Below, piece after piece: positions 1-35,939 of a DNA stretch of 38,213 bases; the first letter of the stretch is position 1, and each line of letters opens with the position of its first letter. The stretch is from IMG/VR virus record IMGVR_UViG_2526164668_000029, positions 1-38,213 of that record. One strand, written 5' to 3'. A program made the position numbers and the translations under genes. A model generated the notes under the pieces. That model ran no database searches. It was not told where the DNA came from and was given only the letters and a program-made list of their open reading frames with translations. This stretch comes from a virus. Lineage: Duplodnaviria; Heunggongvirae; Uroviricota; Caudoviricetes.

Positions 1-483
1 ATGACGAAGAAAAAAGCACATAAACCTGGTTCAGCGACCATCGCGCTTAACAAGCGCGCCCGTCACGAATACTTTATCGAAGAAGAGTTCGAAGCGGGAC
101 TTGCCCTGCAAGGCTGGGAGGTTAAATCCCTGCGCGCAGGAAAAGCCAATATCAGCGACAGCTACGTCCTTCTGCGTGACGGAGAGGCATTTCTGTTTGG
201 CGCTAACATCACGCCAATGGCCGTGGCCTCCACGCATGTGGTGTGCGATCCTACCCGTACCCGCAAGTTACTTCTCAACCAACGCGAACTGGACTCATTG
301 TACGGTCGCGTCAATCGAGAAGGCTATACCGTAGTGGCGCTCTCCCTGTACTGGAAAAATGCCTGGTGCAAAGTGAAAATCGGCGTCGCCAAAGGTAAAA
401 AACAGCACGATAAACGTTCAGATATCAAAGAACGCGAATGGCAGGTGGATAAAGCACGTATCATGAAAAACGCCCACCGTTAA
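1..483 (+). CDS. smpB: SsrA-binding protein SmpB
   Basis: 160-aa ORF whose translation I recognise as enterobacterial SmpB; lies immediately upstream of the tmRNA gene, the conserved arrangement. Confidence 0.97.
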
Positions 484-697: not shown

Positions 698-1060
698 GGG
701 GCTGATTCTGGATTCGACGGGATTTGCGAAACCCAAGGTGCATGCCGAGGGGCGGTTGGCCTCGTAAAAAGCCGCAAAAAATAGTCGCAAACGACGAAAA
801 CTACGCTTTAGCAGCTTAATAACCTGCTTAGAGCCCTCTCTCCCTAGCCTCCGCTCTTAGGACGGGGATCAAGAGAGGTCAAACCCAAAAGAGATCGCGT
901 GGAAGCCCTGCCTGGGGTTGAAGCGTTAAAACTTAATCAGGCTAGTTTGTTAGTGGCGTGTCCGTCCGCAGCTGGCAAGCGAATGTAAAGACTGACTAAG
1001 CATGTAGTACCGAGGATGTAGGAATTTCGGACGCGGGTTCAACTCCCGCCAGCTCCACCA
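698..1060 (+). ncRNA. ssrA: tmRNA (transfer-messenger RNA, SsrA)
   Basis: Starts GGGGCTGATTCTGGATTCGAC, contains the tag reading frame gcaaacgacgaaaactacgctttagcagcttaa (ANDENYALAA-stop), ends with the tRNA-like GGTTCAACTCCCGCCAGCTCCACCA; 363 nt. Confidence 0.95.
1015..1060. repeat. prophage attachment-site direct repeat (ssrA-proximal copy, the last 46 nt of ssrA)
   Basis: atgtaggaatttcggacgcgggttcaactcccgccagctccacca occurs here and again, identically, at 34499-34544. Confidence 0.85.
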
Positions 1061-1070
1061 AATAAATCAA

Positions 1071-1103
1071 GGGGTTACGTGAAAGCGTAGCCCCTTTTTC
1101 TTT
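1071..1103 (+). terminator. putative intrinsic terminator downstream of ssrA
   Basis: Imperfect hairpin ggggttacg / cgtagcccc followed by tttttcttt. Confidence 0.45.
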
Positions 1104-1183
1104 GGTAGTGGCGGCAAAATGGCGACAGACTTTTGCGTCCATCTTGCCTGTCGCCATCTTGAAATCATGCAAAGAGGTTTCAC

Positions 1184-1666
1184 ATGGAAGAACTTCACTT
1201 TGTTTACATCAATGCAAATGGTCGTATCGCTGTTCACTCTATACAGAGCATCAGTTATAGCGAAAATCATATACAGGGCATTTGTAAGAACACCGATCGA
1301 ATAAAAACCTTCCGAAAAGACCGCATTCTTAAACAGTACGATTCACCAGAACAAGCCATTCAGGAATGCGCGTCATTCCTCCCCGAAAGCTACTCACATC
1401 TCACTAAGCAGTCTGGTCCGAAAAAAAATACATTCGATGTGTGTTTCACCGGATTTAAGAAAGCAGATAAAGAAAGATTGGTTGATAAGGCGAATGAACA
1501 AGGATTAACGGTAAGAACCTCTATAACCCAAAGCCTTCAGATGCTCTGTTGCGGTTACAATGCAGGCCCATCAAAAGTATCGGCAGCCAGGATGAAAGGC
1601 ACAATCATCATAGATGAGCCTGGCTTTATACATTTTCTTGAAACGGGTGAGATCCCAGATGAATAA
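1184..1666 (+). CDS. hypothetical cargo protein with a BRCT-like C-terminal domain and a possible WYL-like N-terminal domain
   Basis: 160-aa ORF, visibly AT-rich against the flanking phage genes. C-terminal stretch VCFTGF...LTV...CCGYNAGPSKVSAARMKGTIIIDEPGF resembles the BRCT domain of NAD-dependent ligases. N-terminal ...HIQGICKNTDRIKTFRKDRI resembles the end of a WYL domain (weaker). Confidence 0.65.
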   Translation: MEELHFVYINANGRIAVHSIQSISYSENHIQGICKNTDRIKTFRKDRILKQYDSPEQAIQECASFLPESYSHLTKQSGPKKNTFDVCFTGFKKADKERLVDKANEQGLTVRTSITQSLQMLCCGYNAGPSKVSAARMKGTIIIDEPGFIHFLETGEIPDE

Positions 1667-1667
1667 A

Positions 1668-1685
1668 AACCTGCCGTAGCAGGTT
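1668..1685. terminator. putative bidirectional terminator between the cargo ORF and ogr
   Basis: Hairpin aacctgc-cgta-gcaggtt flanked by an A-run on one side and a T-rich run on the other, between convergent genes. Confidence 0.4.
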
Positions 1686-1692
1686 CTCTTTC

Positions 1693-1911
1693 TCAAAAAT
1701 TCATATGCCCCTGACCACCTGGCAATGGATGTGGAGGAGCAGTAGCAATCAGTGCGGGTGTCACAATAAACCGGACCACTGTTTCATGAGTAACAAAAGT
1801 GCTCCCGCAGTTAATATTTTGGCACTGGCAGTAACGCTCTTTGGTGCTTTCAGTTACTTGAAAACTGCTCCTTGTGTGTGCCGCATGACCACACTTTGGA
1901 CAATTCATCAT
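1693..1911 (-). CDS. ogr: late-gene transcription activator Ogr (zinc finger)
   Basis: MMNCPKCGHAAHTRSS...ERYCQCQNINCGSTF has the C-x2-C...C-x4-C spacing and the P2 Ogr-like C-terminus PHPLPGGQ; about 72 aa from the internal Met, the ORF track start at 1956 is probably too far upstream. Confidence 0.85.
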   Translation of the reverse strand: MMNCPKCGHAAHTRSSFQVTESTKERYCQCQNINCGSTFVTHETVVRFIVTPALIATAPPHPLPGGQGHMNF

Positions 1912-31675: not shown

Positions 31676-32326
31676 TTGTCAAATGGAGAGTTCATCTTGA
31701 AGATTAGTACAGGTGCAAATACGGGAGGGAGAGAGACCATCAAAAGGCTGATGACAGCCTATGGTTTCAACACTCAGATAGCGTTGGTTGAACACCTCGA
31801 AGCATCAAAAAGCACCATGGCAAACAGGATGTTACGTGATAGCTTCCCTGCTGACTGGGTTATTCAATGTGCCCTTGAAACAGGTATTTCTCTTCTTTGG
31901 CTGACAACGGGCCAAGGGGAAATGTATCCTCAAACAGAAGAAAAAAATAAGTTCAAAAACGAGAGTTCACCTATAGTTCGCCCCCTTTCAAAGATAGTTA
32001 TCCCATCAGTAAGGCAGGCAACCATTGAGAACGGAACGCTCGAAGAGATGGGGGATGTTTTCCTTGATCAGACTTTGATACCCGGAAAAGCCGAATATTG
32101 TTTGTACGTCAAAGCTAACGACGGCAATTACATTGTTGATACATCAACAAAACAGCTTAGTAACGGAATTTGGCTCATAGACATCGACGGTATGAAAAAC
32201 ATCGTCAAAATTGCGCGCATACCTGGAAACAAAATAGTAGTTAACCAAGATGACACTTCATTTGAATGTTCTGTAGATGATGTGGAAGTCGTAGGACGTG
32301 CAGTCAAAGTAATCAAGAACCTCTAA
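31676..32326 (+). CDS. cI: 186-type CI immunity repressor
   Basis: HTH N-terminus (...AYGFNTQIALVEHLE...CALETGISLLWLTTGQGE) followed by int; start codon uncertain (TTG at 31676 or ATG at 31751). Confidence 0.75.
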   Translation: MSNGEFILKISTGANTGGRETIKRLMTAYGFNTQIALVEHLEASKSTMANRMLRDSFPADWVIQCALETGISLLWLTTGQGEMYPQTEEKNKFKNESSPIVRPLSKIVIPSVRQATIENGTLEEMGDVFLDQTLIPGKAEYCLYVKANDGNYIVDTSTKQLSNGIWLIDIDGMKNIVKIARIPGNKIVVNQDDTSFECSVDDVEVVGRAVKVIKNL

Positions 32327-32329
32327 CTT

Positions 32330-33349
32330 ATGACCATCAGAAAACAGCCGAACGGAAAATGGTTGTGTGAGTGCTATCCCAATGGACGCAATGGTAAGCG
32401 CGTGCGTAAGCAATTTGCTACCAAAGGCGAAGCTATTGCATTTGAAAGCTTCACAATGGAAGAAGTGAACAAAAAACCATGGCTGGGGGAAAAGGAAGAT
32501 CGGCGACATTTATCAGAATTAATTGAGCTGTGGTATTCCCTGTATGGTCAAACACTCACAGACCCCAAGCGCCTCATGGCGAAACTTAGTATTATCTGTA
32601 ATGGTCTAGGCGATCCCATCGCTTCAGAACTGACAGCCGGTGACTTTACGAAATACCGCGAAGCACGGTTAAAAGGTGAAGTACGAAATGAAGATGGCAC
32701 GCTTATGTCGCCCGTTAAGCCCCGCACGGTAAACCTTGAACAGCGCAATCTATCATCTGTTTTTGGTACACTGAAAAAGCTGGGCCACTGGTCAGCCCCC
32801 AACCCGCTTGCCGGGCTGCCAACATTTAAAATTGCTGAGAGTGAATTGGCGTTCCTGACCCCGGAAGAAATTAAACGTCTGCTGGATGCCTGTGCTGATT
32901 CTCAAAACTCTAGTCTGCTGACGGTTGCAAAAATATGTCTGGCCACCGGCGCGAGATGGAGTGAAGCCGAAAACCTGCAGGGCCATCAATTATCAAAATA
33001 CCGGATCACCTACACCAAAACTAAAGGCAAGAAAAACCGAACCGTACCGATATCTCAGGAGCTATATGAAGAACTCCCCAAAAACAGGGGGAAACTATTC
33101 ACGCCCTGCAGAAAAGCTTTTGAGCGCGCAGTAAAACGAGCCGGTATAGACCTGCCTGAAGGCCAGTGCACACACGTGTTGCGCCATACATTCGCCAGTC
33201 ACTTCATGATGAATGGCGGAAACATATTGGTACTACGCGATATTCTTGGTCACTCTGATATAAAAATGACGATGGTTTATGCTCATTTTTCGCCAGATCA
33301 TTTAGAAGATGCTGTAACAAAAAATCCACTGGCTATGTTGGGATACTGA
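32330..33349 (+). CDS. int: tyrosine integrase (P2/186 type)
   Basis: 339 aa; catalytic region ...HVLRHTFAS...LGHSDIKMTMVYAHF with the R-H-R-Y residues. Confidence 0.9.
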   Translation: MTIRKQPNGKWLCECYPNGRNGKRVRKQFATKGEAIAFESFTMEEVNKKPWLGEKEDRRHLSELIELWYSLYGQTLTDPKRLMAKLSIICNGLGDPIASELTAGDFTKYREARLKGEVRNEDGTLMSPVKPRTVNLEQRNLSSVFGTLKKLGHWSAPNPLAGLPTFKIAESELAFLTPEEIKRLLDACADSQNSSLLTVAKICLATGARWSEAENLQGHQLSKYRITYTKTKGKKNRTVPISQELYEELPKNRGKLFTPCRKAFERAVKRAGIDLPEGQCTHVLRHTFASHFMMNGGNILVLRDILGHSDIKMTMVYAHFSPDHLEDAVTKNPLAMLGY

Positions 33350-33351
33350 TA

Positions 33352-34383
33352 ATGGAAAAAAGCATTAGCACATTTATGTACCTATCCGTTTTATTAGGTT
33401 GTATATTCTTATTTATAAAATATCGACTTTATGTTCTCGATCATAGAAGCCTGTTCCAACAACCCTTGTTCTGGGCTGCAATAGGCCTACCTTTATTCAC
33501 CAGCCTTTACTTTGGTTCTTTTGTCTGGATAGATAAAATACACTCTTTTAGTCTTACAAGTCACGGTTATGAGAGATTTTTAGATATCTCGAAATTACCA
33601 TTACTCATCCTTGCATCTGCAGTACCTTTAGTTTCAATAGTAAACAACCTACACAGAACCAAACAAACAGAAAAACAGATCTCAGAGGCAGAAAGGAAAA
33701 ACAGGGTAGATTTATATTACAACCACATGAAATTTCATCTTGATTTATATAAAAAAATCGAAGGAAAAAGAATAGGCAGCTACTACCCGGTTCAGGAAGC
33801 TCAAGCTGAAGCAATCTACCAACATTTTATAAAACATCCACAAGAACTATATAGAAAAGCATACCCACAATCTACGCCTGATGATTCTCAACAATTAGAT
33901 ATTAATGAGCAATTTGTTATTGATTTACACAAATGTTGGGTAGAAATCAACGCAAGACTCAAGCAATTATCCGAGAGTGAAAATCAAATACATCCTACAG
34001 AGGAACTTTGCACAACAAAGATGAGAATATTTGTAGGAGTTATGATTATTTATGAAAAAACTTGTAAACTGTTGTGTTTAGGTGGATTTCATTATAAAAA
34101 GTCATTTGTAATAAATGATAGTTATAATAAATACCAAGTTTATTCACCATTTTATGATTTTGGCACTCTGTACGAATCACTGCAATCCTTAGAAGAGATA
34201 ACCTACGCCTTCTTGGATACTTGCAGAAATGAAGTGGTAAACTTGTACTTCCCTATAGAAGATAAAATTTTGATATATGGTGAAGGGATTCTAGAGAATT
34301 GGTTCAAGTATTCTCAGTTCTTGATCACTATAGCTTATCAACCCGCCAAGATGTCTCGCTTACCCCAGCTGAGACGCGATTGA
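33352..34383 (+). CDS. hypothetical 3-TM membrane cargo protein between int and the attachment repeat
   Basis: 343 aa, very AT-rich; three N-terminal hydrophobic helices then a soluble domain; ATG 2 nt after the int stop. Confidence 0.7.
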   Translation: MEKSISTFMYLSVLLGCIFLFIKYRLYVLDHRSLFQQPLFWAAIGLPLFTSLYFGSFVWIDKIHSFSLTSHGYERFLDISKLPLLILASAVPLVSIVNNLHRTKQTEKQISEAERKNRVDLYYNHMKFHLDLYKKIEGKRIGSYYPVQEAQAEAIYQHFIKHPQELYRKAYPQSTPDDSQQLDINEQFVIDLHKCWVEINARLKQLSESENQIHPTEELCTTKMRIFVGVMIIYEKTCKLLCLGGFHYKKSFVINDSYNKYQVYSPFYDFGTLYESLQSLEEITYAFLDTCRNEVVNLYFPIEDKILIYGEGILENWFKYSQFLITIAYQPAKMSRLPQLRRD

Positions 34384-34498
34384 TGATGGCGACATTTTGG
34401 CGGCAGAGCTTTAAAAACAGATAAAACTGTCAAACACCACATAACACTAAAGTATTGTTTTTAAACATAAATCATTATTTTTTCTGTAGTAAAAATGG

Positions 34499-34544
34499 TA
34501 TGTAGGAATTTCGGACGCGGGTTCAACTCCCGCCAGCTCCACCA
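34499..34544. repeat. prophage attachment-site direct repeat (distal copy)
   Basis: Exact 46-bp copy of 1015-1060. Confidence 0.85.
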
Positions 34545-34709
34545 CTTTTTAGTTGTTTGAAGTTCAATGAAGTCTACTAAGCCCACACAGCACAAGCTCT
34601 GCGGGCTTTTTTACGTCTATTGTCGTCCAGTGAGAATTGCTGAGAACTACGAGTTATGGCACCCTGAATGGGACCCACTAAGAAGGGTCCAAAAACCGAG
34701 GGTCCCAAA

Positions 34710-35939
34710 ATGGCAAAAATCGCTAAGAAGCTCACTGACACTGAAATCAAAAGCACCAAGCCAGCCGATAAAGAAATCAACTTGTTTGACGGTGATGGTC
34801 TGATTCTACGAATCGCTCCTTTGGCGAAAGGAGGCAAGAAAAATTGGTATTTCAGGTATGCAGTACCAGTGAGCAAGAAAAGAACCAAAATGAGCCTTGG
34901 GACATATCCTCACCTTACCCTTGCAAGAGCCAGAGCCTTACGTGATGAATATCTCTCCTTTCTGGCAAATGGTGTTGATCCCCAAATCCATAACAACGAT
35001 AAGGCGAAGGCATTAAAGAGTGCTACTGAGCACACTCTCTAAGCCGTAGCGCGGAAATGGTTAGATGAGAAGGTAAAGACATCAGGTATCTCACAAGACC
35101 ATGCAGCAGACATCTGGCGCAGCTTAGAGAGAAATGTCTTTCCCGGTCTGGGTAATGTCCCTATCAATGAGATCCGACCTAAGCTCTTAAAACAACACCT
35201 TGATCCTATTGAGCAACGAGGCGTATTGGAAACTCTACGCCGTATCATTTCACGTCTGAATGAAATCTTCCGGTGGGCAGCTACTGAAGAACTTATTGAG
35301 TTCAACCCGGCTGACAACCTTGGTCAAAGATTCAGTAAACCAAAAAAGCAAAATATGCCTGCCCTTCCCCCAAGCGAATTGCCAAGGTTTATGGAATCTT
35401 TGACGAATGCGTCAATCCGGTTGGAAACACGTATGCTAATTGAATGGCAATTGTTGACATGGGTTCGTCCGGGTGAAGCCGTTCGCGCAAGGTGGTCTGA
35501 TATTGATACAACCAACAGCATTTGGAACATTCCTGCTGATTTCATGAAAATGAAAAAGCTTCACAAAGTTCCTTTGAGTAAAGAAGCTTTGCGCATCCTT
35601 GAATTAATGAAATCAATAAGTGGGCATAGAGAATGGGTTTTCCCCAGCATAAAAGCGCCTCTTAATCATATGCATGAACAAACAGCCAACGCAGCTATCA
35701 TCCGAATGGGGTTCGGAGGCGAGCTTGTAGCTCACGGTATGCGTTCTATTGCACGAACAGCGGCAGAGGAGTCTGGTAAATTCAGAGCTGAAGTTCTTGA
35801 GGCAGCGCTTGCCCACTCGAAAAAAGATGAAATTATCGCAGCATACAATCGTGCAGAATATCTGATAGAGCGACAGAGTTTGATGCAATGGTGGAGTGAT
35901 TACGTTCAAGCTCAAAGATCAAATGCTCTGGTAGCCTAA
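34710..35939 (+). pseudogene. P4/CP4-57-type tyrosine integrase interrupted by an in-frame TAA
   Basis: N-terminal part (to 35042) and catalytic part (35226-35939, HGMRS...AYNRAEY) are in the same frame, separated only by TAA at 35040-35042; the read-through translation is continuous and IntA-like. Confidence 0.8.

Follow-up and report, generated by a model that had tools for sequence, protein, structure and literature searches.

A stand-alone WYL-BRCT protein in the lysogeny module of P2-like phages: a candidate sensor of DNA damage or foreign DNA

The prophage Fels-2 and the prophage described here use the same integration site. In Fels-2, CI, Int, attP and ogr follow with no gene in between, and ogr adjoins attP. 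In the window, by which we mean the whole analysed stretch of 38,213 nucleotides (IMG/VR record IMGVR_UViG_2526164668_000029), an open reading frame of 160 codons with an ATG start (1184..1666, plus strand) lies between the attachment site and ogr. Is this ORF a real gene, what does it encode, and what could the protein do for the phage that carries it?

The locus between ssrA and ogr

The last 32 nucleotides of ssrA were found to be repeated at 34513..34544; the window therefore contains a prophage of approximately 33.5 kb integrated in ssrA. The features at its left end are as follows.

1..483, start of the window: smpB
698..1060, plus strand: ssrA (tmRNA gene)
1029..1060, plus strand: attL core at the 3' end of ssrA, with an exact 32-nt repeat at 34513-34544 (attR), none being expected by chance
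1069..1096, plus strand: phage-supplied intrinsic terminator hairpin for ssrA, a 12-bp stem followed by a T run
1109..1127, plus strand: two direct copies of TGGCG(G/A)CA, putative (from sequence) Int arm-type sites of the P' arm
1129..1183, plus strand: cassette-specific 55-bp leader, the left insertion boundary relative to Fels-2
1173-1177, plus strand: ribosome-binding site AGAGG within the leader, 6 nt before the ATG of the ORF
1184..1666, plus strand: the 160-codon ORF
1668..1685, either strand: hairpin with T runs on both strands, a probable bidirectional terminator between the ORF and ogr
1693..1911, minus strand: ogr (late-gene activator), the convergent neighbour of the ORF

The window matches the Fels-2 attP as far as position 1128. 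A 536-bp insertion (window 1129-1664), made up of the 55-bp leader and the ORF, then stands in place of 21 bp of Fels-2; its right boundary lies at 1665, and the hairpin at 1668..1685 is common to the Fels-2 ogr end. Beyond ogr, the D, U and tape-measure genes were found, all on the minus strand.

Homologs of the 160-aa protein numbered 112 at E ≤ 1e-3 in a 90%-clustered collection, mostly with lengths of 157-162 aa, and an exhaustive search of 50% representatives gave a family of at least 191 clusters at E<1e-30. Compared with alleles of approximately 70% amino acid identity, pN was approximately 0.2 and pS approximately 0.8, the latter with synonymous sites saturated; the values against close alleles were 0.009 and 0.027, respectively. 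Since there are 112 homologs and pN is far below pS, the ORF is not a chance one. Judged from these substitution rates, it is a real gene under strong purifying selection. The GC content was 41% in the ORF, 54-57% in the tail genes and 51% over the prophage as a whole; CI had a similar value (42%), and two other accessory genes of the prophage had 34-35%. The description of an AT-rich 160-aa ORF between the ssrA junction and ogr, given in an earlier sequence-only reading of this DNA, was thus accurate.

At the right prophage end, CII and Apl (minus strand) are followed by CI, Int and a 343-aa gene (plus strand) and then by attR.

31676-32326, plus strand: CI, immunity repressor (Pfam Phage_CI_repr/CI_C)
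32330-33349, plus strand: Int (Pfam Int_N/Phage_integrase)
33352-34383, plus strand: 343-aa membrane cargo gene (phrog_17460)
31676..34383, plus strand: lysogeny operon CI-Int-343-aa gene

Once circularised, the phage carries CI, Int, the 343-aa gene, attP and the ORF in this order. Integration separates the ORF from the CI-Int operon and puts it behind ssrA. The terminator at 1069..1096, which is kept in all ssrA-integrating relatives, separates the ORF from upstream transcription in the integrated and the circular form alike. Two promoters of its own were considered and rejected: the consensus scan of the leader revealed no sigma-70-like promoter, and the leader contained no Ogr-type TGT-N12-ACA dyad for an Ogr-dependent late promoter. 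Among relatives, conservation upstream of the ORF was restricted to the att arm.

A pair of TGGCG(A/G)CA motifs was also found at 34384-34410 on the attR side, directly past the stop codon of the 343-aa gene, and the pairs flanking the att core probably represent Int arm-type sites. The leader holds an inverted copy of the motif at 1149-1156, 28 nt before the ATG of the ORF, with which a 14-nt inverted repeat is formed (1115-1128 / 1148-1161). Because this inverted copy sits in the leader, Int binding to the arm-type motifs might affect the expression of the ORF.

Several other features of the prophage are recorded here. The 343-aa protein has three predicted N-terminal transmembrane helices; its gene has 34% GC, lies between int and the P arm of attP, is not in Fels-2 and belongs to a PHROG family of unknown function, with no Pfam, PADLOC or NCBIfam match. 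It is a second att-flanking cargo gene, possibly encoding an exclusion or abortive-infection protein. A two-gene system of the ORF and the 343-aa protein across attP found no support, in that no homolog of the latter was found within ±6 kb in the CI-adjacent loci of the family. In the replication gene A (26232-28647, minus strand), residues 15-576 and 572-809 of Fels-2 A were matched in different frames, with a frameshift near 26932-26945; this prophage copy may be replication-defective, or else the split may be an assembly error. A 469-aa ORF (23915-25324, minus strand; 35% GC; no NCBIfam match) adjoins the portal gene, in the classical P2 old/tin cargo slot, and is probably another accessory or defence gene. 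Just past attR, two ORFs at 34668-35939 (plus strand) carry the arm-binding and the catalytic domain of a tyrosine integrase apart from each other, and resemble what is left of another, decayed element that lay in tandem at ssrA.

Domain architecture of the 160-aa protein

An AlphaFold2 (AF2) model of the 160-aa protein was built from 44 sequences, with a mean pLDDT of 91. The protein is divided as follows.

1184..1339, plus strand: WYL-type (Sm/SH3-like) beta-barrel of five strands, residues 1-52 (strands at residues 3-52 in the AF2 model)
1346..1435, plus strand: two short helices and a flexible lysine-containing linker, residues 55-84 (AF2; pLDDT down to 68 at residues 71-80)
1436..1663, plus strand: BRCT domain of the LigA/RFC1 type, residues 85-160

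The BRCT half was predicted to show a beta-alpha-beta-beta-alpha-beta-alpha fold. On residues 84-145, Pfam BRCT (PF00533) scored 18.6 bits against a gathering cut-off of 21.3 (E=0.0022), and the same model matched 37 of the 44 homologs, the best at 2e-6. When the family profile was compared with PDB sequences, the RFC1 BRCT (5e-5) and the Thermus LigA BRCT (7e-5) were retrieved. Pfam, the PDB profile and the AF2 fold thus agree with the earlier impression that the C-terminus looks like a BRCT domain. Residues T89, G90 and K131 were invariant in the 44 sequences, and K92/K93/K96 were 88-100% conserved; T89-G90 and K131 aligned with the FTG and GxxK of yeast and human RFC1 and of Thermus LigA. 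The S/T-G after beta1 and the Lys at the start of alpha2 make up the phosphate-binding pocket, as is established for BRCA1 and RFC1. The BRCT domains of LigA and RFC1 bind nicked or 5'-phosphorylated DNA. Since the BRCT domain of the 160-aa protein belongs to this DNA-binding type, the phospho-protein signalling once suggested for it is less likely. The BRCT half also bears the motif CCGYNAGPSK and a C-terminal ETGEIP tail.

In the model, the N-terminal barrel was nearest to solved WYL domains, and a separate model of residues 1-77 reached a pLDDT of 90 and a pTM of 0.75. The N-domain profile matched PafBC (2e-5) and PafC (5e-4) in the PDB and, more weakly, PafB, CapW and BrxR. The single 160-aa protein gave weak matches to WYL models (PADLOC, 0.041), and Pfam WYL was found in 5 of the 44 members; in the fused relative P0138, the segment homologous to the N-domain matched PADLOC WYL at 3.7e-9. 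The sequence-only reading had based its suspicion of a WYL domain on a TFRKDRI motif in the N-terminal half. This motif was located at residues 42-48, with T42 and F43 (nearly) invariant in the 44 homologs, and K-T-F-R-K-D-R-I aligned under the canonical R-x-F-R-x-x-R-I. The barrel model, the PafBC profile match and the P0138 segment all point the same way, and in the structure-based comparison that had been named beforehand as the test, the BRCT and WYL folds were both found.

At the position of the W-Y-L triad, the protein has N28-H29-I30, compared with x-Y-I in the family consensus and W-H-V in CapW. Residues Y8, F43 and R47 were invariant, and a conserved basic cluster (K41/R44/K45/R47) was found in a barrel with a pI of 9.4. 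Such a basic barrel with its K/R cluster would be compatible with the binding of single-stranded nucleic acid. The WYL domains of CapW and DriD bind ssDNA on the equivalent face (PMC11662680); all WYL regulators characterised so far sense damage-derived ssDNA (PMC11662680). In the alignment, the ssDNA-contacting arginines R164 and R168 of CapW, which flank the triad, correspond to E27 and Q31 here, and therefore the ligand may differ.

The 160-aa protein contains no HTH (no HTH family match), no WCX and no catalytic domain, and its barrel begins at residue 3. With neither wHTH nor WCX, it is therefore not a transcription regulator of the CapW/BrxR type.

The closest deposited phages are the Escherichia phages 500465-1 (Wadgaonvirus) and Cartapus. 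The homolog is named 'DNA ligase' in 500465-1, in Mannheimia phage PHL101 and in its PHROG family, phrog_2561, and 'putative exonuclease' in Cartapus; the RefSeq name is 'BRCT domain-containing protein'. Taken at face value, these product names would make the protein a DNA ligase, an exonuclease or part of such an enzyme; in favour of this, the B subunit of split phage ligases does contain a BRCT domain (9hu3_B). However, the similarity was found to be limited to the BRCT domain. NCBIfam LigA TIGR00575 scored 17.6 bits against a cut-off of 444, at model positions 548-650 only, and the DEDDh exonuclease PRK06063 scored 24.9 bits against a cut-off of 389, at model positions 229-307 of 331 only. 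Moreover, no adenylation, OB, Zn, HhH or DEDD domain is present in the 160 residues, and no A-subunit gene adjoins the ORF. A catalytic ligase or nuclease was ruled out by this domain content, and the whole reading, subunits included, is considered extremely unlikely. Both labels can be traced to the BRCT domain, the one part shared with the C-terminus of LigA and with that of a DEDDh exonuclease from actinobacteria. The misannotation is propagating in NC_049342.1, NC_070909.1, NC_008201.1 and phrog_2561. The 500465-1 record was also found to contain several kb of host chromosome (smpB, recN, grpE and others). The best PADLOC match for the BRCT domain was the candidate defence protein PDC-S48 (E=4e-7, profile positions 334-406 of 411); membership in PDC-S48 was rejected, since the match is BRCT-only rather than full-length.

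Distribution of the family and its proposed role

We refer to the ORF and its homologs as the WYL-BRCT gene and to the encoded pair of domains as the WYL-BRCT module. The gene was found in 176 of 5426 complete E. coli genomes (approximately 3%). All 28 deposited phages with a homolog were temperate P2-like phages of 31-47 kb. A minority of homologs were orphans in the chromosome or lay in other islands, one example being beside an Mrr-type nuclease and a methylase.

Two main arrangements were observed. In ssrA-integrating prophages of Citrobacter, Klebsiella, Erwinia, Plesiomonas and Tatumella, the gene follows the att site and faces a convergent ogr, as in the window; by alignment, all loci of this kind lie at ssrA. 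In most related phages, the repressor is followed by the WYL-BRCT gene, by zero to two variable genes and then by Int, with 2-35 bp from the repressor stop to the WYL-BRCT start on the same strand. This second arrangement was found in Yersinia, Xenorhabdus, Rahnella, Acerihabitans, Brenneria, Hafnia, Parasalinivibrio, Aeromonas and Serratia, and in Mannheimia phage PHL101 and Vibrio phage PV94. In Marinobacter, where the repressor and the WYL-BRCT gene keep the 2-35 bp spacing, they are followed by a convergent D gene, and Burkholderia phages are organised likewise with one intervening gene. The repressors in front of the gene were of three types (186-type CI, HTH_3 and S24 LexA-like), and its orientation was always that of the repressor and Int. 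The identity between WYL-BRCT proteins was 69% where that of D was 62-87%, and 36-50% where CI had 27-37% and Int 44-59%. By these identities, the divergence of the gene tracks the phage backbone, against a simple picture of shuffled cargo.

The gene had been called a moron on first reading. It is indeed an accessory insertion beside att that is not in Fels-2. However, it is not a recent one: given its typical site directly after the repressor and its backbone-like divergence, it is therefore a long-standing resident of the lysogeny module.

The variable genes beside the WYL-BRCT gene in the repressor-Int slot encode KAP-family NTPases (PADLOC PDC-S20, PifA-like), PDC-S39, AbiTii and a bPH/SHOCT protein. 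The following were found directly downstream of it in other P2-like prophages.

L033 7644-9164, L036 6468-7922, L039 6527-8314 and L025 6696-7589: KAP NTPase (PDC-S20), PDC-S39 and AbiTii genes

The slot thus behaves as a variable cargo slot, in that the gene is not in Fels-2 and its homologs adjoin KAP NTPase/PDC-S20, PDC-S39 and AbiTii genes. The cI-int interval of K139-like phages is a defence hotspot (Rousset et al. 2022, PMC9122126). With these genes downstream of WYL-BRCT genes, the repressor-integrase interval is therefore a defence hotspot well beyond Vibrionaceae. Furthermore, the module occurs fused, at either end, to a domain of approximately 200 residues (phrog_31886/36782; P0113, P0149, P0163, P0173) with the motif W-T-Q-G-H-x-F-x-F, for which no match was found in Pfam, NCBIfam or PDB sequences. 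Other fusions join the module to transmembrane segments and a second WYL domain, or to further BRCT repeats. The nature of the 200-residue domain could show how the module is used.

What could such a protein do? With fair confidence, we infer that it is an enzyme-less binder of ssDNA, through the WYL domain, and of a 5'-phosphate DNA terminus, through the BRCT domain. The WYL barrel is predicted to bind ssDNA as in CapW, DriD and PafBC, and the LigA/RFC1-type BRCT with its T-G...K pocket is predicted to hold a 5'-phosphate terminus; acting jointly, the two domains would be directed at ss/dsDNA junctions, at gaps and nicks, and at ends that are resected or cohesive. Because the protein has neither an HTH nor an enzymatic domain, its output must lie in the occlusion of a DNA structure or the recruitment of a partner protein. 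In most relatives, the gene is presumably co-transcribed with the repressor, and the protein would therefore be made in lysogens.

In lysogens, the protein would most likely serve as an exclusion or defence factor, with DNA ends or replication intermediates of superinfecting phages as its targets. Such exclusion is the role that we favour, tentatively and at somewhat less than even odds. A function in the lysogen is suggested by the presumed co-expression with the repressor and by the defence-gene neighbours. The conserved pocket residues, the basic cluster of the WYL barrel, the repressor-linked position, the defence neighbours, the PDC-S48 match and the variable fusions would all be in line with exclusion. 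Against it, the protein carries no effector domain, and R164/R168 of CapW are not conserved. In the window itself, the gene is also cut off from CI-Int by integration and by the ssrA terminator, with no sigma-70 promoter evident.

The post-CI position in distant genera, the backbone-like divergence and the CI-like GC content are explained at least as well, and perhaps better, by a function in the phage lifestyle than by shuffled defence cargo. The nearest competitor of exclusion, possible though rather unlikely in our estimate, is a DNA-damage sensor that adjusts the prophage switch or the damage response of the host. Produced alongside CI, the protein would bind ssDNA gaps or 5'-P junctions after damage, independently of LexA. 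The outcome would be either more induction, with the protein serving for instance as a latent antirepressor or as a cofactor of Int/Apl, or less, with the protein competing with RecFOR/RecA loading at gap junctions. The slot directly 3' of three repressor types, kept across genera, argues for this reading, as do the tracking of the backbone, the GC match with CI and the inverted Int arm-type motif in the leader; so does the damage-derived ssDNA that all WYL regulators characterised so far sense (PMC11662680). On the other hand, neither an HTH nor a known repressor-binding motif is present in the protein, and the gene is dispensable, being not in Fels-2, and has homologs outside prophages. Moreover, the prophage already encodes a Fels-2/PSP3-type DinI/TumB gene, 100% identical over 77 residues, and therefore an SOS-linked route is probably present already.

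A third reading, anti-defence or genome protection, holds that the protein caps phage ends, nicks or ssDNA against host nucleases or DNA-sensing immunity, in a Gam-like manner. DNA ends and ssDNA are indeed its predicted ligands, and once the phage genome is circular, the CI-Int unit, which is transcribed early after infection, lies upstream of the gene. A structurally similar 162-aa protein was also found in Vibrio phage SSP002, which is outside the P2-like group. Nevertheless, among the deposited phages the gene itself occurred only in temperate P2-like ones, and mostly in the repressor operon, the sole unit that is on in lysogens and off in lytic growth. A protein made after injection, furthermore, cannot shield the incoming ends. 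Genome protection is thus considered improbable.

Exclusion remains the favoured role, and beyond it a broader proposal can be made. WYL-BRCT proteins would form a new class: sensors that stand alone, respond to DNA damage or foreign DNA, and do not work as transcription factors. Co-transcribed with the phage repressor, they would stay latent until host damage or a superinfecting phage gives rise to ssDNA/5'-phosphate junctions, and would then act by BRCT-mediated recruitment or occlusion, with exclusion or a LexA/RecA-independent flip of the switch as the result. This proposal is offered as a speculation with a low chance of being correct in full. Even so, the protein is a good candidate for a DNA-damage or foreign-DNA sensor and is simple to test genetically. 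A two-module protein of 160 residues, conserved in P2-like phages of many genera, would amount to a minimal device for reading damaged DNA or the structures of foreign DNA. Its function, once known, would show how prophages use ssDNA or DNA-end signals without RecA/LexA, and would also mend the recurrent 'DNA ligase' and 'exonuclease' misannotation in phage genomes.

Relation to known systems

The combination of WYL and BRCT in one protein had been regarded as unusual, a view that was overstated in that the combination is not unique: WYL-BRCT fusions are listed among the domain architectures of Makarova et al. 2014, and the family comprises at least 191 clusters at 50% identity, a PHROG family and a RefSeq name. 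In the literature searched on WYL with BRCT in phages, and on BRCT in anti-phage defence or P2-like prophages, the 2014 listing of architectures was found, but no functional study. The supplementary tables of Rousset et al. 2022 contain no BRCT entry. They do list, upstream of Kiwa in the P4 satellite hotspot, an HTH-less WYL protein of 93 aa. Like the protein described here, it is short, HTH-less and located in a P2/P4-type cargo hotspot, and it has been proposed to regulate or sense; however, it has no BRCT domain and is tied to a two-gene effector, whereas the WYL-BRCT gene often stands alone. PDC-S48 has the same BRCT subtype at its C-terminus, but its N-terminal 330 residues have no counterpart here.

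With lambda rexAB, the likeness is one of position only, each gene lying directly downstream of the repressor with no relation in sequence or fold. In lambda, rexAB is an exclusion system and a switch modulator that is co-transcribed with the repressor.

The wHTH-WYL-WCX regulators (CapW, BrxR, PafBC and DriD) possess a wHTH and a WCX, both of which the 160-aa protein lacks. Its barrel precedes a BRCT domain and has N-H-I at the triad, where W-Y-L or W-H-V stands in these regulators; neither R164 nor R168, through which CapW contacts ssDNA, is kept. To our knowledge, WYL domains have so far been understood only as ligand sensors attached to transcription factors or enzymes, and LigA is essentially the one known bacterial source of DNA-binding BRCT domains. 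The BRCT domains of LigA and RFC1 (p140) are the closest subtype by sequence (E about 5e-5), and the T-G and G-x-x-K align; in contrast to LigA and RFC1, the protein here is stand-alone, with no ligase or clamp-loader modules and with the motifs CCGYNAGPSK and ETGEIP of its own. What appears to be new, as read from its sequence, is a WYL sensor without a transcription-factor chassis, joined to a putative DNA-binding BRCT domain in the lysogeny module of P2-like phages.
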